Shown: positions 6,571 through 55,700, counted from the first letter of the stretch. The stretch is DNA of 64,000 nucleotides from an uncultured bacterium (GCA_964511015.1 CAZEDX010000005.1:21171-85170), one strand, 5' to 3'. Translations and numbers: made by a program. The notes: generated by a model not told the origin, from the sequence alone.

Positions 6571-7743
6571 TCACTCCCGCAACCATTCCGGAGAGAAGAC
6601 AGCGAAGTCGATGCGCAGATAGGGCAGGAACGGTAACAGACCTCTCTCATACAAGCAGCCTAGCTGCCCGTCGGGCAAGACCGCCAGCGCGGAATACGCC
6701 GAACCGCCCGGGTTCAACACACGTGAAACCGGCCAGGTTTTGCCGTTGTCGGCACTGAGATAGACGGTCAAGTTGCGCCGGAGCAGTTCGCTTTCCGACG
6801 CCAGCCCTGAATACAACAGGCCGTAAGACGTGTTCAGCAGGCTGCCCATGCACGAAGGATCAAGCAATTCGTCGTCATGCGCCACGCCGGTCCAGGTTAG
6901 ACCCCGGTCCTCGCTGCGCCCCACCCAGCGCCGATGCACCGCCGACAGATCACGCGCGTTAATGACGAGACTGCCGTCGTCCAGTTCCGCCACCTGCGAT
7001 TCGTCGGAATCCGGCACCAGACTTCCTCCGATCTGCCAGGTCTCCCCGTCGTCGCTATAGATCACATGCGAGTAAGCTTCGCCGTTGGTCGCGTCGCGGT
7101 GATCGCACGGGACGATGAAACGGCCATCGGCCAACTGGATGCTGCGCCCGGGACCCGTAGCGTACCATGTCCATTCTTCTGGCTTCACCTGGGTGGTGAT
7201 GTCTAGCGGCTCGGACCAACTCGCCCCTTCGTCGCTGCTGCGGGTGATAAGTACCCGCCGGTTGGTCGGGTCGTCGGCGGGGTTGGTGCAAAAGGGCAAC
7301 AGGATGTCGCCGGTTGCGCGGTCGACGACTGGCGCCGGATTGCCGGCGGTGTCGAAACCGTTGTCGACAATGACACGCAAGGCCGACCAGGTGCGCCCGC
7401 CGTCCACACTGCGTTTCATGACCAGATCAATGTCGCCGGTATCGGCAATGCTCGGACGCCCTTCGCAAAAGGCGAGCAATGCGCCAGTGGCGGTTTCGAT
7501 AACGGCAGGAATCCGGTAGACGTCGTATCCTCCCTGCCCGCCGACAAAGACCGGGTACTCGGCGAACTCGATGGCGCCGTCATCGGTGGCGTCATCGTCG
7601 ATATCGTTGTTGGCGTCATCGTCGTCGCCGGGCGCGTTGGTGTTGTCGTCGGCTATGTTGTCGTCATCACCGGAATTTTCACATGAGATTGCCGTCAGAA
7701 CAGCCAGGAGCAATACAAGGCCTGGCAGCAGATTGCTTTTCAT
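6571..7743 (-). CDS. Exo-alpha-sialidase (GH33, BNR/Asp-box repeats) lipoprotein with an N-terminal Asp-rich tether.
   Basis: Lipobox LTAISC. D-rich linker SGDDDNIADDNTNAPGDDDDANNDIDDDATDDG. RIP motif YRIPAV. Five Asp-box SxDxGxTW repeats (SVDGGRTW, SDEGASW, SDDGETW, SEDRGLTW, SADNGKTW). Confidence 0.75.
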   Translation of the reverse strand: MKSNLLPGLVLLLAVLTAISCENSGDDDNIADDNTNAPGDDDDANNDIDDDATDDGAIEFAEYPVFVGGQGGYDVYRIPAVIETATGALLAFCEGRPSIADTGDIDLVMKRSVDGGRTWSALRVIVDNGFDTAGNPAPVVDRATGDILLPFCTNPADDPTNRRVLITRSSDEGASWSEPLDITTQVKPEEWTWYATGPGRSIQLADGRFIVPCDHRDATNGEAYSHVIYSDDGETWQIGGSLVPDSDESQVAELDDGSLVINARDLSAVHRRWVGRSEDRGLTWTGVAHDDELLDPSCMGSLLNTSYGLLYSGLASESELLRRNLTVYLSADNGKTWPVSRVLNPGGSAYSALAVLPDGQLGCLYERGLLPFLPYLRIDFAVFSPEWLRE

Positions 7744-9404: not shown

Positions 9405-10922
9405 TCAGCATCCACACGCGTCGGCATCGTCGGCGGCGGACGCTTGGTTGCTGTCATCATCCACGTCGTCGTCTAGGTCGTCGTCCTGATCGTCGTCGGC
9501 ATCATCGTCGGACAGATCGTCATCGGCGATGTCGTCGTCGGCATGGTCGTCGTCCGCAACGTCGTCATCCGCGCTGTCATCATCGACAATGTCGTGCGGT
9601 TCCAGAAAATCATAGTAGCGCCCCATCCAGTAGGCGATCAGGTAGTCGACTCCGGGCTGCACGTGCTGAGGCAGCCAGCCGTAACATTGCAAATGGTGGG
9701 GTGTGCGTTGCCACAGGTATTCCACGCGACACCGGTCGGTGATTTCCTGCGCTCCCTCGGCCTGGTATGCGAAACCGAGCAAATCGTTGAGACCCAACGA
9801 CTCGGCCAAGTCGGTCAGAAACACCGATACCGGATCGACCGGCAGTTGCGGACAGTTAATGTGAATCTCGCGGTTGGGCGGATCCTGGAAGACGGTGAGC
9901 GAGTGAAGATCGTCTTCCATGATCTCCTTCGCCCCGGCGCACTGACCCATTTTTTCACAGGCGATCAGATAGACGTAGTCGAAATAGACGTTGTGGGTCC
10001 ATTCGACCAGCCGGCGCTGTTTGCTGAACAGATCCCAATAGACCGCCAAACGTTCCGGATCGTCATCCAGCCGGAACAGGTTCAGATCGATCTGGTGCCG
10101 CAGGTTGTTGGCGAAGTACTCGGTATACCGGTTGAAAAAGGCAATGCTCGTCAACGGCAGCGTGGGCGCCAGTTTTTCGAACTGTTCGGCATACAGATCC
10201 CAATACTCTGCCGTGTCCAGAATGTGCGCCGCGATCAGGCAGAAAACGAGGCGTTTCTGGCCGTCGATCATCGGCGCCGCCGTGGTCGGCAAGCCTTCCT
10301 CGTTGAGAATCAGCCAGGCGCTGTTGCGCAGCTTGTCGATGACCTCTTTCACCATCTCGCGAATCAGGGCCCGGGTCGGGGCGTCGTCGATGAAATCGTA
10401 GGCCAGCGCGAGGCCGTGCCACCAACCCACATATTGGTCGGACGAACTGTTGGACAGATAGAAAGTGCCCAGCCACGGGCCGGTGCCGTATTCGAGCAGG
10501 TCGCTGCCGGCGTACTCCAACCAGTAGGCCGGATCGTTGACCGGGCCGACGTAACGCCCGATGTACCCGGTGGTTTGCGTCACTCGCAGGTGATCGCGCA
10601 AGGTCTCCACCGCGGCGATTGCGTTCTGCTTGGCGTCTTCGTCGCCCGTCACCGCGTAGCGGAATGATTCGGCCGCGCAGTAGGTGGCCGTCCACATCGT
10701 GGAATCGCCCTGGCCGCGGTAGTACAGCACCTTCTCCAGGTCCTCCGTTTCGAACATGATCTGGACAATGCCGCCATAGCCCGGCACGTGGTGGTCGCGG
10801 AGCCAGGTTTCGTAGTCGATGGCACGTTGAAGCAGGGCCGGGTCTTCGTCTGCCGAAACGGGCGCCGCAAACGCGATCGCCACCGCGCCCAAAAGGAATA
10901 GGACGAGCGTTCTTTTTCTCAT
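9405..10922 (-). CDS. Secreted alpha-helical protein of unknown function carrying a C-terminal poly-Asp repeat tail that ends ...DDADACGC-COOH.
   Basis: Signal peptide MRKRTLVLFLLGAVAIAFAAPVSA. C-terminal ~60 aa read DDDSADDDVADDDHADDDIADDDLSDDDADDDQDDDLDDDVDDD...ACGC, then stop. Confidence 0.6.
   Translation of the reverse strand: MRKRTLVLFLLGAVAIAFAAPVSADEDPALLQRAIDYETWLRDHHVPGYGGIVQIMFETEDLEKVLYYRGQGDSTMWTATYCAAESFRYAVTGDEDAKQNAIAAVETLRDHLRVTQTTGYIGRYVGPVNDPAYWLEYAGSDLLEYGTGPWLGTFYLSNSSSDQYVGWWHGLALAYDFIDDAPTRALIREMVKEVIDKLRNSAWLILNEEGLPTTAAPMIDGQKRLVFCLIAAHILDTAEYWDLYAEQFEKLAPTLPLTSIAFFNRYTEYFANNLRHQIDLNLFRLDDDPERLAVYWDLFSKQRRLVEWTHNVYFDYVYLIACEKMGQCAGAKEIMEDDLHSLTVFQDPPNREIHINCPQLPVDPVSVFLTDLAESLGLNDLLGFAYQAEGAQEITDRCRVEYLWQRTPHHLQCYGWLPQHVQPGVDYLIAYWMGRYYDFLEPHDIVDDDSADDDVADDDHADDDIADDDLSDDDADDDQDDDLDDDVDDDSNQASAADDADACGC
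9408..9580 (-). repeat. Tandem 12-nt repeats, (GAC)3-NNN type, encoding DDDx.
   Basis: Protein tail DDDxADDDx... read directly. Coding for the C-terminus of the 9405..10922 gene. Confidence 0.7.
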
Positions 10923-14643: not shown

Positions 14644-14645
14644 GA

Positions 14646-18547: not shown

Positions 18548-19177
18548 GTGAGTCGCATACTGACCGTCATCCTGACCCTCTTGTTGCTCGGCGCATGGGT
18601 ATTGGGAGTGGTGGTAGACAGCGACTACGACGAAGCGACCGCGATCCAACTTGGCTTCCTTTGGTTCCTCGCCGCCCTGGCTCTATCGTGGAACACCAGA
18701 CGCCGCTGGCTCAAAGTCACCGCCCTGCTACTGCTGGTGGCCGTCATGCTGACGTTGGGCGTGCTGGCGCGCCGTGGGGGGGTGTACCGCACCAACGCGC
18801 GCGTTTTACTGGCCCAAAATATGCTCGAACAAGTGGCACGTTCGCTGAACACATATCGGGCAAGCGGTCAAAATCTGCCCACCGGCGATTGGATGTCGAC
18901 GGCGCAGTTGCTGCAGCAGACCGGTAGCTGGCAGATCCTGCGCATCCCCTATCAAGGGCGAACGGAAACGGCCGACTTCGCCACCATTCCACGATCCGAT
19001 CCGTGGGGATGCCGCTATCGCTATCAGGCTTCTGGTGAGCGTTTCACCTTGGCGAGTTCGGGTCCGGACCGGCGGTGGAACACACCGGACGATCTGGTGG
19101 TGAACGACGGCACTCCCCTGCCCGCCGCCCCTCGGCCACTACCAGTATTCGCGCTGTCGAAAAAAATGACGCGGTAG
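18548..19177 (+). CDS. Membrane protein with a C-terminal T2SS GspG-like pseudopilin domain but no prepilin leader.
   Basis: Three N-terminal TM helices. C-terminus ...DPWGCRYRYQASGERFTLASSGPDRRWNTPDDLVVND matches the GspG C-terminal signature (DPWGNPYxY...sGpDg...DDi). No GFTLIE-type cleavage motif. Confidence 0.5.
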   Translation: MSRILTVILTLLLLGAWVLGVVVDSDYDEATAIQLGFLWFLAALALSWNTRRRWLKVTALLLLVAVMLTLGVLARRGGVYRTNARVLLAQNMLEQVARSLNTYRASGQNLPTGDWMSTAQLLQQTGSWQILRIPYQGRTETADFATIPRSDPWGCRYRYQASGERFTLASSGPDRRWNTPDDLVVNDGTPLPAAPRPLPVFALSKKMTR

Positions 19178-20949: not shown

Positions 20950-21240
20950 ATGACCCGTACCGAAATCATATGTGCACTTGTCGCCATGTTGCTGGTACTG
21001 GTCATTGCGGCAGCGACACCCTTTTCCCCCAGGGCAGATGACCGGGCGGACGATGACACCGTCGACGACGATACGATTGACGACGACGCACTCGACGATG
21101 ACACCCTTGACGATGATACCCTCGATGACGACACCCTCGATGACGACACGGCTGACGACGACACCGCGGACGACGACACGTTGAGCGAACGGCCATATAC
21201 CCACACTCTGCAGTTGAGCGACGGCGGCTGCGGCTGCTGA
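20950..21240 (+). CDS. 96-aa secreted or membrane-tethered mini-protein that is essentially signal/TM segment + (DDDTx)n repeats + C-terminal GGCGC.
   Basis: MTRTEIICALVAMLLVLVIAAATPFSPRADDRADDDTVDDDTIDDDALDDDTLDDDTLDDDTLDDDTADDDTADDDTL...SDGGCGC*. GGAAGTGAGGA RBS 5 nt upstream. Confidence 0.65.
   Translation: MTRTEIICALVAMLLVLVIAAATPFSPRADDRADDDTVDDDTIDDDALDDDTLDDDTLDDDTLDDDTADDDTADDDTLSERPYTHTLQLSDGGCGC
21034..21190 (+). repeat. 15-nt tandem repeats encoding DDDT(L/A/I).
   Basis: gacgatgacacccttgacgatgataccctcgatgacgacaccctc... read directly. Confidence 0.8.
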
Positions 21241-21248
21241 AGCCCGCC

Positions 21249-22685
21249 CTATTCCGTCAGTTCCTCGCGGCGTTTGCCAAAAATGTATTTGATGAATTTG
21301 ATGAATGAGCCGCCGAAATAGCGCAAGTCGTCCATACTGCGCAGCAGCTTCAGTTTGCGCCACACGAAACCGGGGCGCAGGTAGATGCGCCGGTACATTC
21401 CCCGCTGCAAGCGAATCAGATCGGCGGGCGAAAAGTGATGGGTGTGCCATACCGGCTCACCGCGCACGATGTCGTATTCGTCCCAGTCCTCGCTTTCGAC
21501 CAACCCTTCCTCGGTCATGACCCGGTGCAAGTCGGTGCCCGGATACGGCACCGCCACGTAGACCATGACAAAATCGGGTTTGATCCGCAGCATCAACCGG
21601 AACGTTTGCTCCACTTCGGCCGGTGTTTCCGACGGGTGTGAGCCGATCATAACAAAAGCGCTGGTCAAAATTCCCGCCCGGTGCGCCGCCGCGAATGCCG
21701 CCTCGATTTGCTCGAGCGTGATGCGTTTGCGGACGGCTTCCAGCATTCGCGGGCTGCCGCTTTCGACGCCGAAGGCGATTTTGACGCAGCCCGAGTCGGC
21801 CATCAGTTGCAGCAGTTCCTGATCCACATTACTGACGCGGCTGTCGCAGTCCCAGGAGACACCGAGTTCATGCAACCCATGACAGATATCAATCAGCCGC
21901 TCCCGGCCGTAGGTGAAGGTGTCGTCGTCGATGGTGAAGTGGTCGACGCCGTAGCGTTCGACACATTCCCGCACTTCGTCGAGAACATGGCGCGCGGAGC
22001 GAAAGCGAACCTTGCCGCGGTGGGTGACAAACGAGCCGCAGAAGAAACAATGAACCGGGCAACCGCGGCTGGTGAACAACTCGGTGATGTTGCGCAGCTT
22101 GCTGGAAAGCCCGGGGCTCGAACTCCCCTGATAGAGCGAGAAGTCAATCAGGTCGCGCGCCGGGAACGGCAGTTGGTCGAGGTTTGCCAGCATCTCACGC
22201 ACGGGTCCCCGGCGGATGTCGCCGTCCTCGCGATACACCGTGCCCGGCACTCCGCGCAGCACCCTATCCCCTCGCTGGATCGATTGGCATAGATCGGCCA
22301 GCGCTTGTTCTCCTTCGCCGATTACTCCCACGTCAAACGCCGAGAACTCCGCCAACGTCCGTTCGGGAATGGCCGACAGGTGCGGCCCGCCGACGAGCGT
22401 CACGATGTCGCGGCTGAAGTCTTTCACCACCCCCGCGAGCCGCGCCGCGCTGTTGACGATGGGGGTCATGGCCGTGAAGCCGACCGCGTCCGGCGCGAAC
22501 CGCGCTAGTTGGGACCGCAGTTGATCGGGGTGATAGCGCATCACGCCGTAATCCCAGATCTCGACCGTGGTTCCGACACGTTCGCGCACATATGCCGCGA
22601 GTTGGGCCAGATTAATCGGATGCTGGCACACCTCGGACGCGATGGAGAGCATCGGTTCCGGCGGTCGGACAAGGGCGAGTCTCAT
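21249..22685 (-). CDS. B12-binding-domain radical SAM enzyme (class B rSAM).
   Basis: N-terminal cobalamin-binding-like domain. CxxxCxxC: TSRGCPVHCFFCGS. Start chosen at MRLALVRPP, which has a GAGGG RBS. Confidence 0.8.
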   Translation of the reverse strand: MRLALVRPPEPMLSIASEVCQHPINLAQLAAYVRERVGTTVEIWDYGVMRYHPDQLRSQLARFAPDAVGFTAMTPIVNSAARLAGVVKDFSRDIVTLVGGPHLSAIPERTLAEFSAFDVGVIGEGEQALADLCQSIQRGDRVLRGVPGTVYREDGDIRRGPVREMLANLDQLPFPARDLIDFSLYQGSSSPGLSSKLRNITELFTSRGCPVHCFFCGSFVTHRGKVRFRSARHVLDEVRECVERYGVDHFTIDDDTFTYGRERLIDICHGLHELGVSWDCDSRVSNVDQELLQLMADSGCVKIAFGVESGSPRMLEAVRKRITLEQIEAAFAAAHRAGILTSAFVMIGSHPSETPAEVEQTFRLMLRIKPDFVMVYVAVPYPGTDLHRVMTEEGLVESEDWDEYDIVRGEPVWHTHHFSPADLIRLQRGMYRRIYLRPGFVWRKLKLLRSMDDLRYFGGSFIKFIKYIFGKRREELTE

Positions 22686-22752
22686 TGGTTCCCTCGCTGT
22701 TTTCGCATAATGAGCGCGGGGGATTATAGTCGCCCGGCGCCGTTTGGCCAAA

Positions 22753-23448
22753 TCAGGTCAGCCGTACCGGACAATTCTCACAACGGGGCCGGGTCTTGCG
22801 GCAGAAATCCTTACCGACGTAGACAATCTGGGCGTGGAACTCGCCGAAGAATTCGGCGTCATGGTCCAGCGTCCGGTGAAAAAGTTCCTGCAGCGGTTGA
22901 TACGCAACGTCCTCCGCCACCGCGCCCATACGCGACAGAATGCGCCGGGTATACGCATCCACTACAAAAATCGGCTGGCGGGCGGCGTAGAGAATCATCG
23001 AGTCAGCGGTCTCCGGCCCAATGCCCTTAAGCGCCAGCAACTCGGCCCGCAGCACGTTCGTCGGCTGGCCGAGCATCGCACGCAAACTGCCCCGATGACG
23101 GCGGGCCAAATGTTGGCAAAACTCCCGCAACCGCGCCGATTTCTGGTTGTAGTACCCGGCCGGTCGCACCGCTTCGGCCAGAGCCGCCGGAGACGCTCCG
23201 AGCATGCCGCGAACGCTCAACATACGACGCGATTTGAGATTGGCGATGGCCTTCTCGACGTTGGTCCAGGCGGTGTTTTGGGTCAGAATTGCGCCGACAC
23301 AGATCTCGAAATCGGTATCGCCCGGCCACCAGCACAACGGACCGAAGTAGGCGAAGGCGGCCTCGTAGATGGCCAACAACCGCCGGCGAATCTCAACCTT
23401 TGAGCGGGGCGAGTTGATCGATGGCCAAGAAGCCGTGCAGCCATACAT
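22753..23448 (-). CDS. nth: Endonuclease III-like HhH-GPD base-excision glycosylase with an Fe-S cluster loop.
   Basis: ...ICVGAILTQNTAWTNVEKA...LKGIGPETADSMILYA... and C-terminal CRKTRPRCENCPV. The start is uncertain because it overlaps the upstream small ORF. Confidence 0.65.
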   Translation of the reverse strand: MYGCTASWPSINSPRSKVEIRRRLLAIYEAAFAYFGPLCWWPGDTDFEICVGAILTQNTAWTNVEKAIANLKSRRMLSVRGMLGASPAALAEAVRPAGYYNQKSARLREFCQHLARRHRGSLRAMLGQPTNVLRAELLALKGIGPETADSMILYAARQPIFVVDAYTRRILSRMGAVAEDVAYQPLQELFHRTLDHDAEFFGEFHAQIVYVGKDFCRKTRPRCENCPVRLT

Positions 23449-23656
23449 CGCGGATACCTGTGGCGCCGAGACAGTCCACGCACAGGCCGATTTCCTGCGG
23501 ATCGGAGAGCTGCAGGTAGACCAGCGGACCGTTGGCGTTGTCTTTCGTCTCAACCTGTTTCACCTTGCCCGTGTGCAACCGGAAGCCATCCACCCGCGCG
23601 GCGTGGTTGTTATGAACTGTATCTTCAATTTTGCGTCCGCAACGAACGCAACGCAT
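23393..23656 (-). CDS. Small Cys-rich (zinc-ribbon-like) hypothetical protein.
   Basis: MRCVRCGRKIED...CVDCLG. An 87-aa ORF on the same strand as nth, in another frame. Confidence 0.35.
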   Translation of the reverse strand: MRCVRCGRKIEDTVHNNHAARVDGFRLHTGKVKQVETKDNANGPLVYLQLSDPQEIGLCVDCLGATGIRDVWLHGFLAIDQLAPLKG

Positions 23657-23742
23657 GAAGTGCCCCGGTCAAATTTCGCCTAATATACCGGGTGGTACTG
23701 CATCTGTCACGCAGGACGGAGGCGACGGGCCTCAGGCAAGGT

Positions 23743-26262
23743 TCAGCACCCACAGCCTTCGGCGGAATGCCGGTCGTCGTCTTGATCCGCAGGCGACGAA
23801 TCGTCATCGGCCGCATCGTCATCTGACGAGTCATCGTCGTCGGCATCGTCATCGCTCGGCGGCGGCTCGTCCGCCGGTTCCACGGTCAAGGATAGCTCCC
23901 GGTACGACCAGCCGCTATCCGTCGTGGCCAGCACGATTGCCTCGTAGCGACCGGCGTGCGACGGCGTCCAGCGGATCGTGCCGCCACTGACCGTCGCTTC
24001 GGCCAACCCGTATACCGCCACTTCCGCCCCGTCGGCTACCGCATAGGTCCACTCCTCGGCCGCTTTCAAGCGGGTCGTGGACGGTTCGAGAATCGACGGC
24101 GCGGTGAAGCCCACGGCTTCGGGCGGCTGTTTGCCCAGATGCCGGCGCAGGGAATTCGTTTGCATCAGACTGAGTTGGTACCGGTCGTGGAAAAGAGCAT
24201 CCCACAACAAACGGTCTGCTTCGGCCAACGCGGCCTCGTTGGGAAGCCCACTCATCAACGAACTCAGATAGTCGAGCAATCGCAGCAAGGCCTGTCCTTC
24301 GTCGGTCAGCCGGTCGCAGGGGAACCACAGGTCATCCACCAGAGAGACATCGAGCGTGCTGTGGTGCAGACGATTCTGGGTGGTTGCCATTTCGGCGGCA
24401 ATGTGCATTAGCGCACTCCCCGCGGTGACCAGCGTTTGCCGGGAGCCGTCGGGCAACTCATCCTCCAGTTGCTCAATGGCTTCATTCATCGCACGGTTGT
24501 TGGGGAAGTTCAGGCCGTCAAACCCCAACGCCCCGTTTCCGTAGAAGGTTTCGGCCATATAGACCGCCAGTTGCCGGTCGTGTTCGGATAACGCCGCCTC
24601 TCGCGCAGCGGGACCCAGAGCGTCGTCGGGCTCGTAGTCGGCGGCATTGCGCAGATACAGCGCGTACGTGCCGAGCATAAGGCGATTGGCGGCGCCGAGG
24701 ATCATCGGGTTGGTCACGATGCCAACCACCGCGTCGACCAGATCGGCGCTGCGGTTCTGGTAAGGCGCGAGATATACCTTGCCCATGAAGCCATCGCCGC
24801 CGTCGGTGCCGTTTTCGTTGTCCCAGATGGCCGGCTCGCGCCCCAGGCGCGAAGTCACGTCGATCAGATCGGCCGCCTCAAGGGTCGGACTAAACGTGTC
24901 GGTCCCGGTCCACATCACTTCGATCTGCGGGTCGAGTTCGGCACAGACATCCAGGTATTCGGAGCCGCCCGGCCAATCGTTTTGCCGTTGGCTCGAATAC
25001 ACCGTGGGTACGACCCACAGCGCCACGTCTTCGCCGGCCATGGCGGAAAGTTCGCCCCGCAGCCAGTTGGCCAGGGCCACGTGTTGGGCGGCCAACTCAC
25101 CGTCGATCGGCACTCCGACGTCTCCTTCGATGTCATCGAGCAACAAAGTGAAATGGCGAAAACCTCCTTCGACAAACGGCTGGAGCTTAGCCAACAGGGT
25201 CGCCTTTTCCACAGGGTCGTCCATGTCCATGTCTTTGCCCGGACTGATGCCGAAAGAGAAGGTAACGCCGACCATTGCGCCCAGGTGCAGCAGTTCGACA
25301 AAGCGCGCCACCGCTTGGTCATCGTAGGGCGTGCGCCATTCGTCGCGGTGCAACGGATCGTTCTTGGGGCCGTAGATATACAGCCCCAGTCCCAGGCGAG
25401 CCAAGAACGTCATCATGGCCCGGCGCTCGGCATGCGACCACGGCCGGCCGTAAAAGCCTTCCACCACGCCGCTGTTTTCGAGCAGTGGCGCCTCGCGGCT
25501 GGGCAAATCGACAACCTGTTCCGGGCCCACCGAACCGTCCTCGGCAACCGGCACCAACACGGCTTGCATTCCGGCCGACAGCGGGAGAGGGCCGAGCCAC
25601 GCCTCCCGCGGCATGGCCGTCCCGACCAACGACCAGCGGTCGACGTCAGTATCGCCCGAGTCAACGAAATGAATCTCCACGTGATGGACATACTCGCTGG
25701 CTTGTTTCCAATCCAGGCGCAGACCCGTGGCAACTTGCCGCGCACTCACGTTCGAGATTTCCGGCAAGCCGTCGACGGGCGCGGCATACACATGGAACTC
25801 ACGGAGATTGCCCGGACCGGCATCGCGCACCTCGACCTCGACACAATACGCCTCGGCGGGCTCGCCAAAGGCCAACGGCTGATCAAGATACTTCCACACT
25901 TGCTCGACCAACACCCGGCCACCACAGTATTCGCGGGCGCGAACCGTGACCGCGCCGTTTGGTTTGGTTTCCCATTCGGCGTCGAGTTGCGCCAGATGCG
26001 GCGCTGGTCCGCCAAGCGGCGCAAAATCGAACGACAGCGTCGCAATGCCTTGACGCGGCGTCTTCCAGCCGGTGTCCGGATCGTCATCGCGCACGGTGTA
26101 TGGCGCGTCATCGGTTTCGCGCGGCCACATCAGCAAAAAGGTCGGCTGGGTACCCGAAGCGGTCACGCGTGCAAACGGGACCAGATCGAGCGGTGCGGCC
26201 TGAACGGCCGCCGCGCTCAGCACTAAGACGGCCCACACTAGCAACAAGTGTTTCATTGGCAT
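23743..26262 (-). CDS. Secreted GH84-family beta-N-acetylglucosaminidase (O-GlcNAcase/hyaluronidase-like) with a C-terminal poly-Asp tail ending EGCGC.
   Basis: Signal MKHLLLVWAVLVLSAAAVQA. GH84 catalytic block VVEGFYGRPWSHAERRAMMTFLARLGLGLYIYGPKNDPLHRDEWRTPY...FRHFTLLLDDIEG (DD catalytic pair). Tail ...SDDDADDDDSSDDDAADDDSSPADQDDDRHSAEGCGC*. Confidence 0.8.
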   Translation of the reverse strand: MPMKHLLLVWAVLVLSAAAVQAAPLDLVPFARVTASGTQPTFLLMWPRETDDAPYTVRDDDPDTGWKTPRQGIATLSFDFAPLGGPAPHLAQLDAEWETKPNGAVTVRAREYCGGRVLVEQVWKYLDQPLAFGEPAEAYCVEVEVRDAGPGNLREFHVYAAPVDGLPEISNVSARQVATGLRLDWKQASEYVHHVEIHFVDSGDTDVDRWSLVGTAMPREAWLGPLPLSAGMQAVLVPVAEDGSVGPEQVVDLPSREAPLLENSGVVEGFYGRPWSHAERRAMMTFLARLGLGLYIYGPKNDPLHRDEWRTPYDDQAVARFVELLHLGAMVGVTFSFGISPGKDMDMDDPVEKATLLAKLQPFVEGGFRHFTLLLDDIEGDVGVPIDGELAAQHVALANWLRGELSAMAGEDVALWVVPTVYSSQRQNDWPGGSEYLDVCAELDPQIEVMWTGTDTFSPTLEAADLIDVTSRLGREPAIWDNENGTDGGDGFMGKVYLAPYQNRSADLVDAVVGIVTNPMILGAANRLMLGTYALYLRNAADYEPDDALGPAAREAALSEHDRQLAVYMAETFYGNGALGFDGLNFPNNRAMNEAIEQLEDELPDGSRQTLVTAGSALMHIAAEMATTQNRLHHSTLDVSLVDDLWFPCDRLTDEGQALLRLLDYLSSLMSGLPNEAALAEADRLLWDALFHDRYQLSLMQTNSLRRHLGKQPPEAVGFTAPSILEPSTTRLKAAEEWTYAVADGAEVAVYGLAEATVSGGTIRWTPSHAGRYEAIVLATTDSGWSYRELSLTVEPADEPPPSDDDADDDDSSDDDAADDDSSPADQDDDRHSAEGCGC

Positions 26263-26315
26263 CCCCATAGAGCCAGGGGTTCGCGACGGATCGCTATTCG
26301 TCGGCAACTCTCTTC

Positions 26316-28520
26316 CTAACAGCCACAACCACCGGTGTCATCATCGTCGTCGGCCTGATCGTCATCGGCACCGGTATCGTCGTCGCTATCGTCGTCGTCG
26401 ACCGCGTCATCATCGGCGTCGTCATCGGCGACGGTGTCGTCGTCGACGTAGTCGTCGGGCTCTGGCCCCAAACCGCCGAACTTGAGATACGGTTCGTGTT
26501 TGGCCGCAAGAGCCGCAAAGGCCGGTTTGAACGTCGTGCGGTCCATGTGCGCCAAACCCATTGACTGCAGGTACGGCGCAATGAAATTCGGCAAGCCGTT
26601 CTTGGTGTACCAATTGAACACACAGAACCAGGTGGTGGCGATCAGGTTTCCCTGCGGGTTGACCTGGCCGTTCACGTCGAGCGCGGCAGTTTCGGCAAAC
26701 GCGGGCCAGGTGCCGTTAACCGTGTCCACCTGTCCTTGCGCGTCGCTATCGTCAGATTCCGACCAATAGCCGAACTCCGTGTCGATGATCGGGTGGTTCG
26801 GATACTTCTTCTGGAACTCGGTGATGAATTCGAGCGTTTCGCTGTACATGTCATCGCCGTAGAACACGCCGTAGTACATCGTCCAGCCGGCCACATCGAT
26901 TGGCGGCACCGACGCCGACATCAGTTTCCAGTTTTGCGCGGCCGGCGACTGGGTGATCATGCGTCCATCGGGGTAGTTGTCCCGGTGGTCGGCGGCCAGC
27001 ATGGCGTTGTAGTCGGCGACCTGCATTACCCACACAAACGGGCATTCGTTTTCCGTTCCCCAAAACATAACAGAGGGCCGGTTGAAATTGGATAGCACCA
27101 TTTCGCGAAACATCTGCTGGTGGATTCCGCGTGTGTTCTGGAGCGTCCAGTTCCAACCGAAGTTCCAATACACCGGAATCTCAGTCATCACCGCCATGCC
27201 CAGGCGATCGGTCAACACGTAGGTATACAAGTGGTTCGGGTAATGCCCTGTGCGCAGGAACAACGCCTTGAGATCGCGCCGCATGGTTACGATGTCGTCG
27301 CGGATGCGCTCCCAAGAGGCGGTGCGGCCGGTGTCGGGGTAGTCTTCATGGCGCGCAACGCCCGGAAAGAACGCCACGCGGCCGTTGACCAACAGCTTGC
27401 CGCCGTGCCGGGCGACGGTACGAATTCCGAATTGATTGAAATGCTCGTCGACCGCTTCGTTGTCGACTGCCAAGGTGGTCTTCATCACATAGAGGTGCGG
27501 CTCCTTTGGCGTCCATCGCAACGGACGCCGCACCCGAAGATCAAAGGAGAGTACCCGAAGTTGTCCGGCCGGCACAATAACGGCCGCTTGCGAATCACCT
27601 TCCAAGAAAGCTTCGTCGCCGATGATCGACGACGGATGTGGATCGGTCAGATAGCCCGCCGCCGCCGGGTCCGCCCGGTAGGCCGTTAAATCGACCGAAA
27701 CCTCTTCATCTGTAGCCAGGTCGTTGGCAACTACCACTTCGAGGTGCAGCGACCCGTTGTAGTCGACTGGCACTATGTTGGTTCGAACCACATGCACCGC
27801 CGGCATGCTTTCCAGGTAGAGATCCTGGATGACCCCGGTGTAGTCCCACCAATCCATCGCGATCCAAGAAGGAACGGCGTCTTGGCGCACGCCCGGGAAA
27901 GGCTTGTCGATACGAATGACCAGTAAGTTCTCGGCACCGTAGTTCAGGAACGGAGACAGATCGAAAGCAAACGGCGTGTAACCACCTTCGTGAACGCCGA
28001 CCCATTCGCCGTTGACCCAAAGGTCGAGAACATAGTTGGCGGCCAGGCAAACGAAATAGTTGGTACGGTCGGCCCAATCACTCGGGACCTCGACCACCCG
28101 ACGGTACCAAACGCCGTCATGATACGGCTCCGGCATATCCGACTCGTCACCGGGCATCGTGTTTTCTACACCCGGCAAGCGGTGCTGTGTCCAGCCGGAA
28201 TCGTCATAGCTCACAGTGTGACGCCCACCGCCGGCCGCCTCGATCGCGCCAATCGTCGTCGCATCGCGCAGTTCGAAGGTGAGATTGTGATCGAGGTGTT
28301 GGCGTTCCCGTTTCCATTGCCCAGCCAGGGAAACCACGTCATGATCCTGCGCTTCAAAATCAGGCACCGGAGCACCCGACTGGATGGGGACCATGACTCC
28401 ATCGACCTCAACGAAATCCAACGTCGTGGCCAGGGTGCCTGGTTGGCTGTCGCCTTGGGCAAGCGCAGCCGTCGTGAAACAGAACAGCAATAGAATTAGT
28501 AGTAGGCCGTCTTTTTTCAT
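26316..28520 (-). CDS. Secreted GH2-family glycosidase (beta-galactosidase/mannosidase/glucuronidase type) with a C-terminal poly-Asp tail ending GGCGC.
   Basis: Signal MKKDGLLLILLLFCFTTAALA (AAAGGAG RBS). GH2 sugar-binding domain WYRRVVEVPSDWADRTNYFVCLAANYVLDLWVNGEWVGVHEGGYTPFAFDLSPFL. Tail DDDTVADDDADDDAVDDDDSDDDTGADDDQADDDDDTGGCGC*. Confidence 0.75.
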   Translation of the reverse strand: MKKDGLLLILLLFCFTTAALAQGDSQPGTLATTLDFVEVDGVMVPIQSGAPVPDFEAQDHDVVSLAGQWKRERQHLDHNLTFELRDATTIGAIEAAGGGRHTVSYDDSGWTQHRLPGVENTMPGDESDMPEPYHDGVWYRRVVEVPSDWADRTNYFVCLAANYVLDLWVNGEWVGVHEGGYTPFAFDLSPFLNYGAENLLVIRIDKPFPGVRQDAVPSWIAMDWWDYTGVIQDLYLESMPAVHVVRTNIVPVDYNGSLHLEVVVANDLATDEEVSVDLTAYRADPAAAGYLTDPHPSSIIGDEAFLEGDSQAAVIVPAGQLRVLSFDLRVRRPLRWTPKEPHLYVMKTTLAVDNEAVDEHFNQFGIRTVARHGGKLLVNGRVAFFPGVARHEDYPDTGRTASWERIRDDIVTMRRDLKALFLRTGHYPNHLYTYVLTDRLGMAVMTEIPVYWNFGWNWTLQNTRGIHQQMFREMVLSNFNRPSVMFWGTENECPFVWVMQVADYNAMLAADHRDNYPDGRMITQSPAAQNWKLMSASVPPIDVAGWTMYYGVFYGDDMYSETLEFITEFQKKYPNHPIIDTEFGYWSESDDSDAQGQVDTVNGTWPAFAETAALDVNGQVNPQGNLIATTWFCVFNWYTKNGLPNFIAPYLQSMGLAHMDRTTFKPAFAALAAKHEPYLKFGGLGPEPDDYVDDDTVADDDADDDAVDDDDSDDDTGADDDQADDDDDTGGCGC

Positions 28521-28641
28521 CGTCGGCTCCTTTCTGTCCTTCATTGAGACATAGCCGGGGAGGTAAGTCAAGCATTATGGCACTCAGTGTCATATTGGAC
28601 GTCTTGTTTCGGGCGTCCGCTTCGGCTATCCACTGACTGCT

Positions 28642-31482: not shown

Positions 31483-32184
31483 ATGGCGAACGAAAAAGAC
31501 AGCCAACGTACCCAAATCAGCGGCGATGAGTTGCGCAAGCTTCTGGTCGACGCCAGTGGCCGTCGTATTCGTATTCGGCTTTTCTTTCCTCCCGAGGGAC
31601 CGGCTTTTTCCAGCAACCTGGTCCACGTCTACGATTCGCAGTTGTTGATGGACGGGGTCGGTTCGCCGGCGATTCGGCGGCTATTGGAGCAAGAAGTCCG
31701 CCTCGAAGCCGAGTTCAGTTTCCGGCGAACGGGCGTATTTCGTTTCTCCACCTACTTTGCGACGTTTAAAGACCACGTGAGCGAGCAGTTTCTGGTCGAG
31801 CTGCCGGCTGTAATCGACCATGTGCAGCGCCGCGGTGCGTATCGCGTCGAACCGAGCCGAACCTTGTCCGCCAACGTGATTTCCATCGGCGGCAAGGCCA
31901 CCCATGACCGAGTGAAAATCGAAAACGTCAGTATCAGCGGAATGTGCCTTTCCTTTCCCCAGCAGGCAGCAATCAAAGTTGGCTCGCTGTTGCGCTCGAT
32001 TCGCATTCATCTGCAGGATCTACCCGAATTCGTGGTCGACGGTGTGGTTCGCTCGATCACCCGCGGTGAAGACGGACGCTTCCGGCTGGGAGTGGAATGG
32101 TGGATGCTGGAAGTAGAACAGGAAAAGATTCTCAAACACTATATTTCGGCTTGTCAGATCATTGAGGTCAAAACGAGACACTAG
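31483..32184 (+). CDS. PilZ-domain c-di-GMP receptor, YcgR/flagellar-brake-like by context.
   Basis: PilZ motifs RRGAYRV (RxxxR) and NVSISGM (D/NxSxxG). Adjacent to flagellar genes. Confidence 0.75.
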   Translation: MANEKDSQRTQISGDELRKLLVDASGRRIRIRLFFPPEGPAFSSNLVHVYDSQLLMDGVGSPAIRRLLEQEVRLEAEFSFRRTGVFRFSTYFATFKDHVSEQFLVELPAVIDHVQRRGAYRVEPSRTLSANVISIGGKATHDRVKIENVSISGMCLSFPQQAAIKVGSLLRSIRIHLQDLPEFVVDGVVRSITRGEDGRFRLGVEWWMLEVEQEKILKHYISACQIIEVKTRH

Positions 32185-32483
32185 CCGTCAATTCGCTCGC
32201 CCTTCGTTCCACGGCCGTTCAGTTTGTAAAGGAAGGCCAATACCTCGGCCACGGCTTTGTATAGATTCGGCGGAATTTCCTCTCCGAGGGGAAGCTTCGC
32301 CAGCGCCGCCGCCAGGTCCGGGTCTTCGCGCAATGGCACATTGGCCGCCAGGGCGCGTTCGATGATTTTCTCTGCGATCGCCCCGAATCCTTTGGCGGTT
32401 ACCCGCGGCGCACGGTCTTTCTTCACATCGTACTTGACCGCAGCGGCAACCTTGCGTGGCTTATGGTCTTTTCTTTCGCTCAT
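32181..32483 (-). CDS. FlhB C-terminal-domain paralogue (YlqH/FhlB-domain protein).
   Basis: ...RAPRVTAKGFGAIAEKIIERALAANVPLREDPDLAAALAKLPLGEEIPPNLYKAVAEVLAFLYKL matches the FlhB C-terminal autocleavage-domain family. Confidence 0.8.
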   Translation of the reverse strand: MSERKDHKPRKVAAAVKYDVKKDRAPRVTAKGFGAIAEKIIERALAANVPLREDPDLAAALAKLPLGEEIPPNLYKAVAEVLAFLYKLNGRGTKGERIDG

Positions 32484-33610
32484 GCTCTCACATTGAGGGT
32501 CGAACCTTCAGCCGTCCCATACAACATCTGTGTCAGATCGGGTTCCGGCGCCTCCGTCAGGTCTTCCCGGACGGCAACCTGCGGCGACAACCCTTCCGCC
32601 TGCAACCCTTCGGTCAGTTCCGGCAAGGCCGCGCGTACGCGTTCCGCTACTTCCACTCCGCTGGTGTAGATCGTGGCGTTGACTGCCTGCCCCGTCACCG
32701 CGATCAAAGCGCGCACTTCGCCCAAGTTGGACAGACGGAGTTTGACAAAGGCGGTGCTGGTCGATGCGCTGTGTTCCGACCGCTTGGCATCGCGATCTTT
32801 GTAAATCCAGATGTCAGCCGGTTGCGCCTCTCCGTTCAGGATAAACGGCAACGACAGATAGACCGGCTGCCCGCGCGATTCCAGCAAGGCATTGAGCGCA
32901 CGGAACAAACCGATCTGTTCTTTGACCTGCGCGAACTGCCGCGTCAATTGGCCCACATCATCGGTCGACATATTGGGCGCCTCTTTCAGTACCGCCGCCC
33001 ATTCTTTCGATGACGAGGACAAAATGCGTTGCAACAACCCAGGCAGGTTGCGCCCAAGCGCCTCGCGCAGCCGTTCACCGACGGTAGCCGGCGACAGCCC
33101 AAAGAGCACCGCCAGGTTCATCAGCTTTTCGGCCAGACCCGGGCTGACGGTCAACGTCTCGGCCAAGACCGCGTGGGTGCGCGACAGCAGAGCCGCCAGA
33201 CCGCTTTTCGACCCTCCTAAGGCAGCCAACAAGCCGTTGCGGGCCAGGGTCGAAATGGCCACCGACCGTTCGGCCATTCCGCCCAACCGAGACCGCACAA
33301 CTTTGACTAGACTCGCCATTGCCGGATCGTCTTGGGTGTCCAACCTGCGCAATACGTACGACGTCCCATCGCGCTCCACCCTCACAGACATGCGATCGCC
33401 GACGTTCATCTCCCCGGTGGTTCGGGCCGTCACCGACGCGCCTTTGAGTTTAAGCAAGACGTTGCCGTCGGTGAATTTCTGTAAAACCTCTACATCGAGT
33501 CTCTCGCCGGAGCGTAAGGTGGCCAGCACACTTTCTCGGCGTGGAATCAGGACAAACGAGGTCTGCCGAATGGACGGTGTGGAAGGACCGAGATGAACCT
33601 TGGCCGGCAT
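32480..33610 (-). CDS. fliK: Flagellar hook-length control protein FliK-like.
   Basis: FliK-like C-terminal domain (...AFVKLRLSNLGEVRALIAVTGQAVNATIYTSGVEVAERVRAALPEL...) and flagellar-operon context. Confidence 0.6.
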   Translation of the reverse strand: MPAKVHLGPSTPSIRQTSFVLIPRRESVLATLRSGERLDVEVLQKFTDGNVLLKLKGASVTARTTGEMNVGDRMSVRVERDGTSYVLRRLDTQDDPAMASLVKVVRSRLGGMAERSVAISTLARNGLLAALGGSKSGLAALLSRTHAVLAETLTVSPGLAEKLMNLAVLFGLSPATVGERLREALGRNLPGLLQRILSSSSKEWAAVLKEAPNMSTDDVGQLTRQFAQVKEQIGLFRALNALLESRGQPVYLSLPFILNGEAQPADIWIYKDRDAKRSEHSASTSTAFVKLRLSNLGEVRALIAVTGQAVNATIYTSGVEVAERVRAALPELTEGLQAEGLSPQVAVREDLTEAPEPDLTQMLYGTAEGSTLNVRA

Positions 33611-34314: not shown

Positions 34315-34380
34315 AACACACCTTGTTCGGTATTTAATACCGTCTCTTATCTTGTCTATCGGTCGTTTTTCCGGATCTGA

Positions 34381-46147: not shown

Positions 46148-47452
46148 CTACCCGCTGCACCCGCCCGAGGCGTTAGAATTGCTGCCAAGAGCCGACGCAC
46201 CGTCCAAGGTGTCGTCGTCTGGGATCGTATCGTCATCAACTGTCGTGTCGTCATCAACAGTCGTGTCGTCATCGATGGTCGTGTCATCATCCACGGTCGT
46301 GTCGTCATCGATGGTCGTGTCATCATCCACGGTCGTGTCGTCGTCTACCGTGGTATCGTCGTCCACAGTTCCGTCATCGTCCGTAATTGTGTCGTCGTCT
46401 ATGATCGTATCATCGTCAACCAGATCATCGTCGTCGAACACGTCATCATCAATCGTATCATCGTCAATGGCGGTATCGTCGTCGATCAGGTCATCGTCTG
46501 GAATCGTGTCGTCATCAATCGTGTCGTCATCTGCGTTGTCATCGTCGGTGGTGTCGTCGTCACCGGGCTCTTCGACCGTGAATCCATCTGCCAATTCGGC
46601 GTATTCGTCGTCGCTGTTGATCACCCGAACAGTGTAGATACCCGGAGTAATGCCGGCGGGCACCGTCGCGGTGAGGATGTCCGAAGCAATTTGCACCACA
46701 TTTGTCGCCAGCGTGTAGCCAATCAGCACGGTCGCGTCTTCGTCGAAATTCGCCCCGGTAATGGTCACGGGAGTGTCCACATCGTTGGGGGCGTGGTTGG
46801 GTTCGATGCCGGTAACCTGCAACTCCGCAGAACTAAGGACGGTGTAACCCTCGACTAGAACGGCACTTCCTCCACCCATATTGGACACCGTCACGTCGTA
46901 GATGCCCGGCTCCAAGCCACTGGGCACCATGGCTTCAATGGTTGTCAGACTGCTGACCGTAACCGACTCCAGTGCTGTCGAGCCGATGGTAACGGTCGCG
47001 CCGTCCAAGAAGTTGGTGCCGGTAAGAACGACGGAAGTCGCCACGTTGTCGAGCCCTTGATTCGGCACGATCGACAGTAACGTCACATCCGAAGGATTGA
47101 TCACGGTATACGCTTCTGGCAGCACCGCCTGACTGAGTGTTTCGGTGATCAGGTACACATCGTAGACCCCCGCCGGGGCACCCGCCGGGATGGTCGCCGT
47201 GATCAGCTTATCGGTCACCACGGTGACCGCGGTACACTCGGTGGCACCGACCAACACGCGCGGGGTGCCGGCGAAATTGGTGCCACTGAGCACGATGTTC
47301 ACTTCGACGTTGTTGGCACCTTGGATGGGTTCGATGCTGGTCAGCGAAACCGTCGCGTTCCCGCCCGATGGATAGCGGGAAAAGTCCCGGCCGCACTGCA
47401 CCAAGATCACCAACAACAACAGGGTCGGCAGAATCGCCAGCGCTCGTTTCAT
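46148..47452 (-). CDS. Secreted IPT/TIG-repeat surface protein with a ~135-aa C-terminal poly-Asp tail ending SGGCSG.
   Basis: Signal MKRALAILPTLLLLVILVQC. Four IPT/TIG-like repeats (...GTNFAGTPRVLVGATECTAV...). Tail (DDDTTV/DDDTIx)n ...DDDTIPDDDTLDGASALGSNSNASGGCSG*. Confidence 0.7.
   Translation of the reverse strand: MKRALAILPTLLLLVILVQCGRDFSRYPSGGNATVSLTSIEPIQGANNVEVNIVLSGTNFAGTPRVLVGATECTAVTVVTDKLITATIPAGAPAGVYDVYLITETLSQAVLPEAYTVINPSDVTLLSIVPNQGLDNVATSVVLTGTNFLDGATVTIGSTALESVTVSSLTTIEAMVPSGLEPGIYDVTVSNMGGGSAVLVEGYTVLSSAELQVTGIEPNHAPNDVDTPVTITGANFDEDATVLIGYTLATNVVQIASDILTATVPAGITPGIYTVRVINSDDEYAELADGFTVEEPGDDDTTDDDNADDDTIDDDTIPDDDLIDDDTAIDDDTIDDDVFDDDDLVDDDTIIDDDTITDDDGTVDDDTTVDDDTTVDDDTTIDDDTTVDDDTTIDDDTTVDDDTTVDDDTIPDDDTLDGASALGSNSNASGGCSG
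46160..46560 (-). repeat. 18-nt and 15-nt tandem repeats encoding DDDTT(V/I).
   Basis: gtcgtgtcgtcatcaacagtcgtgtcgtcatcgatggtcgtgtcatcatccacggtcgtgtcgtc... read directly. At least 20 repeat units. Confidence 0.8.
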
Positions 47453-54383: not shown

Positions 54384-55700
54384 TCATTCCGGCAACGGCG
54401 AAAAGAATCGTGTTTGCCCCCAGGCAGCACATTCTTGTTCGGTCATCGTCGTTTCAGCACTGCGGTAGACGGAGAACTCGCCACCTCCCTGGCCGGCAAA
54501 CTCGGCCACCACCTCTTCGGTCTGACGATCGATGATCTGTCCAGAAATATGCGGAAACAGGATGAAGATGACATACCATTTCGTGGCGACAGTGGCATCG
54601 GACAGCATCGGTGCGTGTTCGGCTCCGACCTCGACGCTCGCTTCCACACGGTAGCGGTCGTTCTGCGCAACCACGAAGGCGTCCTTGGGTACGCACTGGC
54701 GCGCCGTGGTATTGAACATCCAGTGGTCGTGACGCCAGCCCAGTTCCCCATCCGAGGAGCGAAAATGCTCCAACTGCAGTTCGCCGTCATGATAGAAACC
54801 CAGATCGAGGTAGTCGAGATCGACCGATTCGTAGTGATAGGTCTGCCATGCCCAACTGACGCCGGCGTCGAGATCGGTGACTACCGCAAAATCCCAACCA
54901 CCCAGGTTGAACGCCCAACGGCCCCAGGAGTTCTCGCGGTAGCCGTTGCCGTCGATGATGATTTCGTCGCCGGACTGGCGATCGGTGATCGTCCCGGTCA
55001 CGCGCGTGCGTGGCCAGAGCATATCGACGTTCCACTTTTCCTCGTCCGGACGCAACACACCCACATCGTTGCCCTGTTCCGGCACAAAGGTCTGCTCTCC
55101 ATTGCTGAGCGCTTTCCACTCTTGGCTGACGCGGAGACTCCACTCGAAGTTCGTGGTGCGGCCGGCGAGAATCAAAGCGTTTTCGTCTGGCAGCGGCGTC
55201 ATGGTTCCGTAGTCGCCGGTGGCGGCGTTTTCCGCATGGAACTCGCGGAAGTCAGCCGACGCCAGAAAGCCCTCGTAACCGAAGTTGCGGTACTCGGCAA
55301 CACGTTCTCCGGAAGGCAGGCTCCCGGCAATCGCCACATTGCCCCCTTTCGGCACCAAGCTGCCGAACAAGTCCTCGCGGTTGCGCGGATTGGCGATCAG
55401 ATAGCCCACACTGCCGGTAAACGAGCCATCGGCGTTGTGGACCATAAAGTAGTCCCACTCGAAGCTCATGCCGTCGATTTCGCTTGGCGTCAGATAATCG
55501 TCACCAACGATGTGCCAGCCGGGCAGACCCCACCGGCCGGCGGCGCTGTCATCGTCGCTATCGTTATCGGCAACGGTGTCTTCATCAGCAATCGTGTCGT
55601 CGTCTGACGCTTCGGATGCGTCGTCGTCATCATCGACCGCACAGGAACCCAGACACAACGAGTAGAACAAGCACAGGACGAGCAACCATATTTTCATCAA
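54384..55700 (-). CDS. Lipoprotein with an N-terminal Asp-rich tether and a CrtC/AttH-like (lipocalin-type) domain.
   Basis: MMKIWLLVLCLFYSLCLGSC, then AVDDDDDASEASDDDTIADEDTVADNDSDDDSAAG, then ...SFEWDYFMVHNADGSF... The domain assignment is tentative. Confidence 0.5.
   Translation of the reverse strand: MMKIWLLVLCLFYSLCLGSCAVDDDDDASEASDDDTIADEDTVADNDSDDDSAAGRWGLPGWHIVGDDYLTPSEIDGMSFEWDYFMVHNADGSFTGSVGYLIANPRNREDLFGSLVPKGGNVAIAGSLPSGERVAEYRNFGYEGFLASADFREFHAENAATGDYGTMTPLPDENALILAGRTTNFEWSLRVSQEWKALSNGEQTFVPEQGNDVGVLRPDEEKWNVDMLWPRTRVTGTITDRQSGDEIIIDGNGYRENSWGRWAFNLGGWDFAVVTDLDAGVSWAWQTYHYESVDLDYLDLGFYHDGELQLEHFRSSDGELGWRHDHWMFNTTARQCVPKDAFVVAQNDRYRVEASVEVGAEHAPMLSDATVATKWYVIFILFPHISGQIIDRQTEEVVAEFAGQGGGEFSVYRSAETTMTEQECAAWGQTRFFSPLPE

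Follow-up and report, generated by a model that had tools for sequence, protein, structure and literature searches.

Five exported proteins encoded in a 64-kb window of DNA from an uncultured bacterium (GCA_964511015.1 CAZEDX010000005.1:21171-85170; "the window" denotes this whole stretch of 64,000 nucleotides) end in a long aspartate-rich tail that is closed by a cysteine motif (Table 1). A preliminary description of the window had pointed out these five open reading frames (ORFs), and we found all of them where it placed them, with the C-terminal ends that it quoted. Its domain assignments for three of them, GH84 (PF07555), GH2, and IPT/TIG, likewise agree with Pfam and NCBIfam. It had also treated the five as like members of one group. 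This holds for the four CGC-ending proteins; the IPT/TIG protein (hereafter the TIG protein) is a lipoprotein and an atypical case.

Table 1. Tail-bearing proteins of the window and two lipoproteins with the mirror-image arrangement (positions in the 64-kb window)
Product	Coordinates	Strand	Asp block or linker	Cys-motif codons	C-terminal end	Remarks
505-aa exported protein, unknown fold	9405..10922	-	9453-9593	A-C-G-C, 9408-9419	...ADACGC	TGA stop at 9405-9407
96-aa protein	20950..21240	+	21037-21177	G-C-G-C, 21226-21237	...GGCGC	signal peptide + (DDDTx)n + ...HTLQLSDGGCGC
GH84 beta-N-acetylglucosaminidase	23743..26262	-	23773-23871	G-C-G-C, 23746-23757	...EGCGC	signal peptide + tail; PF07555 E = 9.5e-69
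GH2 glycosidase	26316..28520	-	26337-26456	G-C-G-C, 26319-26330	...GGCGC	signal peptide + tail
IPT/TIG (choice-of-anchor Z) protein	46148..47452	-	46202-46561 (120-aa DDDTTV block)		SGGCSG	lipoprotein-type N-terminus LVQ-C-GRDF; atypical/borderline member
BNR/sialidase-like lipoprotein	6571..7743	-	7579-7668			lipobox Cys, then poly-Asp linker; mirror-image context, not a tail bearer
438-aa lipoprotein (LGS-C-AVDDDDD)	54384..55700	-	55548-55634			N-terminal poly-Asp linker; mirror-image context

The Asp-rich blocks of the five ORFs are 33-120 aa long and 54-66% Asp, and they are encoded by imperfect tandem repeats of 15, 18, 30, and 45 nt. Counted from the first Asp to the C-terminus, the tails comprise 42-137 aa of low-complexity, (DDDxx)n-type sequence. 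Among the 717 stop-to-stop frames of at least 50 aa in the window, only these five contain ≥25% Asp in their last 60 residues. In a crude gene set of the window, in which Cys makes up 1.2% of residues overall, an Asp-rich tail was associated with a Cys in the last five residues (Fisher p = 3e-5). Judged by eye, all five proteins begin with a signal sequence, which is of the signal-peptidase-I type in the four CGC-ending proteins; a lipobox-like Cys was seen only in the TIG protein. The ORFs stop at TGA (three) or TAG (two). As the preliminary description had maintained, they do not continue beyond these stops: downstream of all five, we found no hydrophobic helix or basic cluster in any of the three frames. 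The Cys motifs are therefore the literal C-termini of these proteins.

Pfam and NCBIfam (June 2026) recognized the catalytic domains of the window proteins and nothing in their tails, and isolated tails searched against NCBIfam at E = 10 gave zero matches. The 505-aa and 96-aa proteins matched no Pfam or NCBIfam family at all, and a PDB sequence search with the 505-aa protein returned no match. Our literature search for a poly-Asp/GCGC tail found no paper describing such a tag. The earlier statement that no tag of this form had been described thus agrees with the family models and the literature found, except that the motif is related to a known one, that of MYXO-CTERM.

Orthologues of the GH2 protein show what is conserved. 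All 33 Asp-tailed GH2 orthologues (41-70% identity, from many independent metagenome assemblies) have a Cys in the last five residues, with CGC ends in 25/33 and GCGC ends in 22/33, while the Asp part of their tails varies throughout in length and sequence. The 34 distinct GCGC ends draw on the full set of four Gly, two Cys, and three stop codons. This variety of synonymous and stop codons indicates that conservation acts at the protein level rather than on a DNA or RNA element. Variant ends also occur: GCGW among the GH2 orthologues, GCGCGC among these orthologues and in one pattern-matched gene (L040), and GCGR, GCGY, GCGF, GCA, GCSF, GCCGC, GCGCL, and GCGCQV in neighboring genes that lay outside our search pattern. 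Across these ends, the dominant core is G-C-G-x-COOH, with a Cys at position -3 and a second Cys that is frequent but optional.

Orthologues of the 96-aa protein lie in the same synteny (P0131, ending in GGCGCL, and L120:17755-18033, ending in AGCGC), and across the three genomes its end is conserved as ...H-T-x-x-[LI]-[ST]-[DN]-[GA]-G-C-G-C. A likely orthologue of the 505-aa protein in the metagenome-assembled genome (MAG) HK-STAS-FEN-2 (L078:1024-2550) ends in SGCGC. The terminal Cys had been called invariant in the preliminary description, and the GH2 family bears this out, but the TIG family does not, since eight of its orthologue clusters lack a terminal Cys.

Confinement of the tail to the window, which the preliminary description had named as an outcome that would refute it, is not what we found: the GH2 orthologues and our scans of genomes and metagenomes show the same ends elsewhere. 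Searching one genome per GTDB species with a degenerate DNA pattern (Asp3...GCGC-stop) gave at least 116 loci. Among the matches listed, 21 loci are genuine in-frame tails from at least 8 MAGs, several of which have multiple loci, and the other 95 are out-of-frame noise in unrelated taxa. The tail-bearing MAGs include FR-FEN-1099-1, HK-STAS-FEN-2, CTOTU18725, and CTOTU29523. A metagenome scan with an Asp5-Gly-Cys pattern was very noisy and yields examples rather than counts; among the matches listed, it contributed four further genuine tails (L179, L186, L213, and L236). A word-indexed protein search with the 96-aa protein, in which low-complexity words were probably unindexed, returned 12 candidates and gave the orthologue P0131 and the Cys-less P0133. 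A 39-position hidden Markov model (HMM) of 24 aligned tails had zero matches among 1.84 billion representatives, this profile being too short and biased to be informative on distribution.

The window very probably belongs to GTDB phylum FEN-1099, Candidatus Lernaellota. This placement follows from the FEN-1099 labels of two tail-bearing MAGs, from an orthologue of the TIG protein that carries the name Candidatus Lernaella stagnicola, and from the contigs of P0131 and P0002, which are syntenic with the window. The paper describing Lernaellota reports many secreted glycosidases and peptidases and found the MAGs to be most abundant in the anoxic lake zone; a term search of that paper found nothing on the tail. 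Going by names only, the tail-carrying MAGs come from anaerobic-digester, activated-sludge, and fen projects. With the index gene of each locus excluded, we counted ~1 further tail gene per 20 kb. This suggests ~100 or more tail bearers per genome, a crude extrapolation that is biased upward by gene clustering.

The cargo of the tail is heterogeneous, with about 30 unrelated families. Thirty-two tail bearers matched 40 Pfam families, nearly all of them with only one or two proteins each, and every complete example starts with a signal sequence. Peptidases C25, M14, M28, and C1, GDPD, purple acid phosphatase, PKD, Kelch, GH84, GH2, and TIG are all represented, and the tail also occurs on an FGE-sulfatase protein and a choice-of-anchor J protein. 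Such a set of proteins is typical of a surface-display system.

The position of the tail also coincides with that of known sorting domains. GH2 homologues from Ignavibacteriota and Bacteroidota (~41% identity) carry the sorting domain PF18962 of the type IX secretion system (T9SS) in its place. Choice-of-anchor domains occur among the tail bearers (Z, an NCBIfam call, on the TIG protein, and J), and homologues of the TIG protein carry midcut-by-XrtH, dockerin, or tripartite Cys signals. The tail therefore occupies the same slot on GH2 as the T9SS C-terminal domain, and here it is found on peptidase C25 and other T9SS-type cargo. However, the T9SS domain is a folded beta-sandwich of ~80 aa, whereas the tail consists of low-complexity sequence and four further residues, without sequence similarity to it, and no PF18962 or TIGR04183 match was found in the tail-bearing window proteins. 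Given the heterologous exported cargo, the shared T9SS slot, and the conservation of the motif, we think it likely that the tail serves as some form of tag for sorting or anchoring. To that extent the earlier proposal of a dedicated sorting or anchoring system was reasonable; that it is dedicated was an inference, as no processing enzyme was found.

A related arrangement occurs at the opposite end of lipoproteins. At least nine lipoproteins of these genomes, two of them in the window, have poly-Asp within a few residues after the lipobox Cys. In 6/8 of those found by our screen the N-terminus reads C-G-DDDDDD, the mirror image of the ...DDDDDD-G-C tails, and 0/9 have a Cys end. The lipobox Cys with a poly-Asp linker of 30-40 aa was also seen at L117:14750-17419, L059:4261-5847, L105:901-2805, L024:5021-5854, L054:2913-3404, and L084:1824-2228. 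This linker looks like an exaggerated form of the Bacteroidota lipoprotein export signal and appears to be a separate feature of the whole lineage. For lipoproteins of Bacteroidota to be exposed on the surface, it is enough that a polar residue and an acidic run lie beside the lipidated Cys (SDDDD in B. fragilis) (Lauber 2016). The tails share with this signal the combination of a Cys, a polar residue, and an Asp run on surface hydrolases (C-SDDDD vs. C-G-DDDDDD and DDDDDD-G-C). Its composition, a polar residue and at least two acidic residues beside the Cys, is present in the tails in mirror orientation, with lipidation of their Cys putative. By contrast, the polarity is reversed, with the Cys of the tail proteins at the C-terminus, and the Asp run is 10-30 times longer. 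Unlike in N-terminal lipoproteins, the tail Cys also lacks the signal-peptide lipobox context for Lgt and Lsp.

Poly-Asp and the Cys motif are separable modules, as poly-Asp is found both after a lipobox Cys and as a C-terminal tail without Cys. Two of the Asp-tailed families found lack a terminal Cys, and both are lipoproteins: P0133 and the TIG orthologues (the eight clusters P0135-P0142), which have a conserved lipobox, C-G-R-D-F. The terminal Cys thus appears to occur where an N-terminal lipid anchor is absent, and poly-Asp would be a general spacer or export module beside a Cys anchor.

The motif has a published counterpart in MYXO-CTERM (TIGR03901), in which an invariant Cys, often within "GCGC," follows a disordered region and precedes a helix and an Arg cluster (Haft 2023; Guo, Haft and Wall 2025). 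In the working model for this signal, the Cys is lipidated by an unidentified enzyme, myxosortase (a CPBP protease; MrtX/MrtC/MrtP) then cuts just after the Cys, and surface exposure depends on a type II secretion system (T2SS) (Guo, Haft and Wall 2025). The tail resembles MYXO-CTERM in its C-terminal position on signal-peptide-bearing adhesins and hydrolases, in its invariant Cys, which is often part of GCGC and has a small residue before it and a disordered region upstream, and in having dozens of substrates per genome. Its G-C-G-x core with an optional second Cys agrees with the published description of the MYXO-CTERM signature, and its end coincides with the proposed myxosortase cut site. 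By contrast, the tail has a stop directly after the motif, without a membrane helix or Arg cluster, its upstream region is a long, pure poly-Asp repeat, and it occurs in Lernaellota/FEN-1099, whereas MYXO-CTERM occurs in Myxococcota and Bradymonadales.

Model searches and individual loci reflect both sides of this comparison. The TIGR03901.2 HMM (cut-off 20 bits) matched neither whole tail proteins nor isolated tails, even at E = 10, and 240 kb of Lernaellota-type DNA contained no tripartite C-termini of Cys, helix, and Arg. Besides the four tails, the metagenome scan brought out two tripartite forms, which served as positive controls for this HMM. At L143:1089-1331(+), DDDDDGC is followed by a linker, a helix, and RRR and scores 21.8 bits against TIGR03901 (cut-off 20). 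The same layout at L131:2908-4641(-) scores 18.7 bits, in a protein with myxococcal Cys-rich repeats. With 5-8 Asp directly before these MYXO-CTERM-type domains, acidic runs beside a Cys are not exclusive to Lernaellota. A homologue of the TIG protein (P0144) ends in SSGCSAG followed by a helix and RRRR, vs. ...SGGCSG-stop in the window protein. The tail is not a member of the MYXO-CTERM family, as it fails the defining tripartite features; what it shares is the signature motif and the type of cargo. The preliminary description had denied any match to MYXO-CTERM, which is correct for the architecture (no helix, no Arg cluster) but not for the motif, given that GCGC is the published signature. 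Tail and MYXO-CTERM probably share their logic. The tail encodes directly the C-terminus that the MYXO-CTERM model predicts for the mature protein.

We therefore favor, with a probability of roughly 0.45, the reading that the tail is a helix-less, Cys-type C-terminal surface anchor, most likely lipidated, with poly-Asp serving as spacer and surface cue. The tag would be in use across Lernaellota (FEN-1099) and would consist of a disordered, polyanionic Asp spacer and then a terminal G-C-G-x, usually GCGC, with the invariant Cys three residues from the end. The N-terminal sequences point to export by Sec and cleavage by signal peptidase I. The C-terminal Cys thiol or thiols would then be covalently modified, most likely with a lipid, a step borrowed from the MYXO-CTERM model. 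Beside the modified Cys, the Asp run could provide an extended spacer and perhaps also cue export to the surface, as in Bacteroidota. The outcome would be glycosidases, peptidases, phosphoesterases, and adhesin-like proteins displayed on the surface of polymer degraders.

Several points weigh against such an anchor. It is hard to see how, in a protein that lacks a membrane helix, the Cys would be kept at the membrane for an Lgt-like enzyme; moreover, a polyanion should be repelled by anionic lipids and has no obvious route to a membrane-embedded transferase. Lipidation of MYXO-CTERM is itself still a hypothesis (Guo, Haft and Wall 2025). No CPBP-family protease was found among the 36 of ~58 window genes that were scanned against Pfam. 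A crude screen for CPBP/myxosortase-like proteins (helix count plus EExxxR/FxxxH/HxxxN) gave nothing convincing in ~300 kb, which is a few percent of a genome; Asp repeats read in antisense frames accounted for many of the "membrane" ORFs there. The evidence for near-exclusivity with lipoproteins consists of two Cys-less families and loose manual signal-peptide calls, and exceptions exist in both directions: the window TIG protein has a lipobox as well as a Cys end, and P0158, from a 2-kb contig, has neither. The phyletic range of the tail is also known only as a minimum, from the matches listed.

A more specific version of the lipid anchor seems doubtful to us. It would be a "reverse lipoprotein" pathway of Lernaellota, in which Sec-exported proteins are lipidated at a Cys three residues from a free C-terminus, with no helix and no myxosortase-type cut, and in which poly-Asp is the surface-export signal. 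If this were true, the pathway would have ~100 or more substrates per genome (a rough extrapolation), and the enzyme that modifies the MYXO-CTERM Cys would be common to Myxococcota and Lernaellota while myxosortase would not, making that enzyme findable by phylogenetic profiling.

Much of the evidence for a lipid anchor, namely the conservation, the breadth of cargo, and the anchor slot, applies equally to an anchor of another kind, which would have no need of a membrane helix. Here CGC would form a disulfide or thioether to an envelope partner (an outer-membrane protein, the S-layer, or a polysaccharide) or would cross-link the enzymes with one another, and poly-Asp would make Ca2+/Mg2+ bridges to the surface or to mineral particles. 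CXC peptides are redox-active, poly-Asp binds divalent cations and mineral surfaces, and the Asp tails without Cys on lipoproteins indicate that poly-Asp has a function of its own. However, many variants have one Cys only (GCGR, GCGY, GCGF, GCGW, GCA, and GCSF), and stable disulfides are less likely in the anoxic lake zone where Lernaellota MAGs peak. Such chemistry also leaves both the identity with the MYXO-CTERM motif and the lipoprotein mirror image unexplained. We regard this explanation as unlikely. As distant GH2 homologues have the T9SS domain in its place, the tail could instead be a cleavable outer-membrane secretion signal, comparable to a T9SS C-terminal domain or a T2SS cue, that is removed so that the enzymes are released free. 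Pseudopilin/T2SS-like genes do lie nearby in the window: 18548-19177 passes the Pfam cut-off for T2SS-G, 7916-8890 matches T2SS-N/AsmA below cut-offs, and L121 has weak matches to N_methyl pseudopilins. Yet T2SS recognizes folded cargo rather than linear tags, and 42-137 residues of variable, low-complexity Asp would be an odd recognition element. The near-exclusivity with N-terminal lipid anchors also fits an anchor better than a transit signal, and a secretion signal is an improbable explanation.

We consider it slightly less probable again that the tails have no role in sorting and are slippage-prone Asp repeats that act as solubility or cation-buffering appendages, with the terminal Cys serving in metal binding or redox chemistry. 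Their imperfect tandem repeats (15-45 nt) would fit this, as would the use of poly-Asp all across the lineage's exported proteome, including proteins without the Cys. What it does not account for is that the G-C-G-x end is strictly kept in orthologues of 41-70% identity while the Asp part drifts, that the tail is confined to signal-peptide proteins of many unrelated families, and that its motif equals that of a proven sorting signal, MYXO-CTERM. An artefact (ORFs that are frameshifted or cut short, a stop that is recoded, or a duplication that is local and recent) is scarcely credible, because the same ends recur in dozens of independent assemblies (NCBI, ENA, JGI, and Logan), stops other than TGA are also used, and no frame runs into a helix. 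Read-through or selenocysteine insertion at TGA, the stop of 3/5 window ORFs, was rejected, as TAG and TAA occur too and nothing hydrophobic lies beyond the stops.

Other known C-terminal elements resemble the tail only in part. The tails differ from PEP-CTERM, LPXTG, and GlyGly-CTERM in lacking the tripartite series of motif, helix, and basic cluster. The Ser-Asp repeats of staphylococcal Sdr and Clf proteins are acidic spacers upstream of LPXTG anchors. They are like the tails in that an acidic spacer of low complexity and considerable length, which slippage-prone DNA repeats encode, separates a functional domain from a C-terminal anchor, but the anchor there is the tripartite LPXTG signal cut by sortase, whereas the tails have no helix or basic end. 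Substrates of the type I secretion system (RTX proteins) differ in that the tail proteins have N-terminal signal peptides, and the DDDxx repeats lack Gly and are not GGxGxDxUx nonapeptides. Eukaryotic CXC/CAAX prenylation (Rab, Ras; processing by the CPBP protease Rce1) also uses a Cys at -3/-1 or -4 of the literal C-terminus. That Cys is a site of lipid attachment, and Rce1 is of the same family as myxosortase (Guo, Haft and Wall 2025). However, prenylation substrates are cytosolic, whereas the tail proteins carry Sec signals and would be modified outside the cytoplasm.

Prokaryotic C-terminal sorting signals have so far been defined as tripartite, with a motif, a membrane helix, and a basic cluster, and as cut by an intramembrane protease. 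A helix-less Cys tag on perhaps 100 or more exoproteins per genome, phylum-wide, would show that helix and protease are dispensable for anchoring of this kind. The enzyme that modifies the invariant Cys of MYXO-CTERM is an open question in the 2025 myxosortase paper, and the tail could offer a comparative handle on it. It could also improve the annotation of surface vs. released hydrolases in Lernaellota, and it is a candidate for a very short display tag.

Some neighboring genes were considered as possible partners of the tail. A B12-binding radical SAM gene is convergent with the 96-aa gene, 3-8 nt apart, in three genomes (window 20950-22751; L117:10001-11704; L120:16315-18033). Its best NCBIfam similarities, to ApyD and HpnJ, are far below cut-offs. 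We rejected this enzyme as a tail modifier and take the arrangement as synteny rather than linkage, because the flanking GAF-GGDEF and HhH-GPD genes are equally conserved, the enzyme belongs to the cytoplasm, and the two genes point toward each other. Membrane glycosyltransferases of the GT-C (PMT_2) type, as well as a TPR protein that has 8 membrane helices, were seen within a few kb of tail genes (L054:371-1750, L071:5892-8000, L078:6037-7662, and L107:4195-6636), and a UbiA prenyltransferase (L078:4884-6110) lies beside L078:6037-7662. The proximity of GT-C genes to tail genes in three loci probably reflects the abundance of this family, although it could hint at glycosylation of Thr-containing Asp repeats.

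Three further regions of the window concern lipids, secretion, and defense. The minus strand at 56924-61373 carries a second B12-binding radical SAM gene (57880-59367), flanked by a gene for an LPG_synthase_C-domain protein (56924-57826) and one for a 669-aa protein with ~9 membrane helices and no Pfam match (59364-61373); together they may form a membrane-lipid modification cluster. The product of 7916-8890(+), encoded between the BNR lipoprotein and the pair of MgtC and the 505-aa tail protein, has weak, sub-threshold similarity to AsmA/T2SS-N (GspN). In Acinetobacter, an AsmA-like GspN was reported in 2025 to help the T2SS carry lipoproteins to the cell surface (PMC12802150). At 1533-4999(-), where GC content falls to 0.50, the lowest in the window, genes for a GmrSD_N (DUF262) protein, an RNase_T-type exonuclease, and a 298-aa protein without a family may make up a small defense islet.

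The remaining clusters relate to oxidative stress and motility. Genes at 10984-15735(-) encode cytochrome bd subunit II (by Pfam), a likely subunit I upstream (by eye), a ferritin, a rubrerythrin-domain protein and, again by eye, a second rubrerythrin and a Fur/PerR-like regulator. Further rubrerythrin-like and AhpC/TSA-redoxin proteins (one and two, respectively) are encoded at 55763-56305, 61377-62051, and 63246-63995. The oxidative-stress cluster is consistent with the phylum description, in which Ca. Lernaella is reported to have a cytochrome bd oxidase. A flagellar export and switch cluster at 32181-45690(-) encodes FlhA, FlhB, FlhF, a MinD-like ATPase, a sigma factor, and a hook-length protein, as called by Pfam on the syntenic L120; the cluster runs out just upstream of the gene for the TIG lipoprotein.

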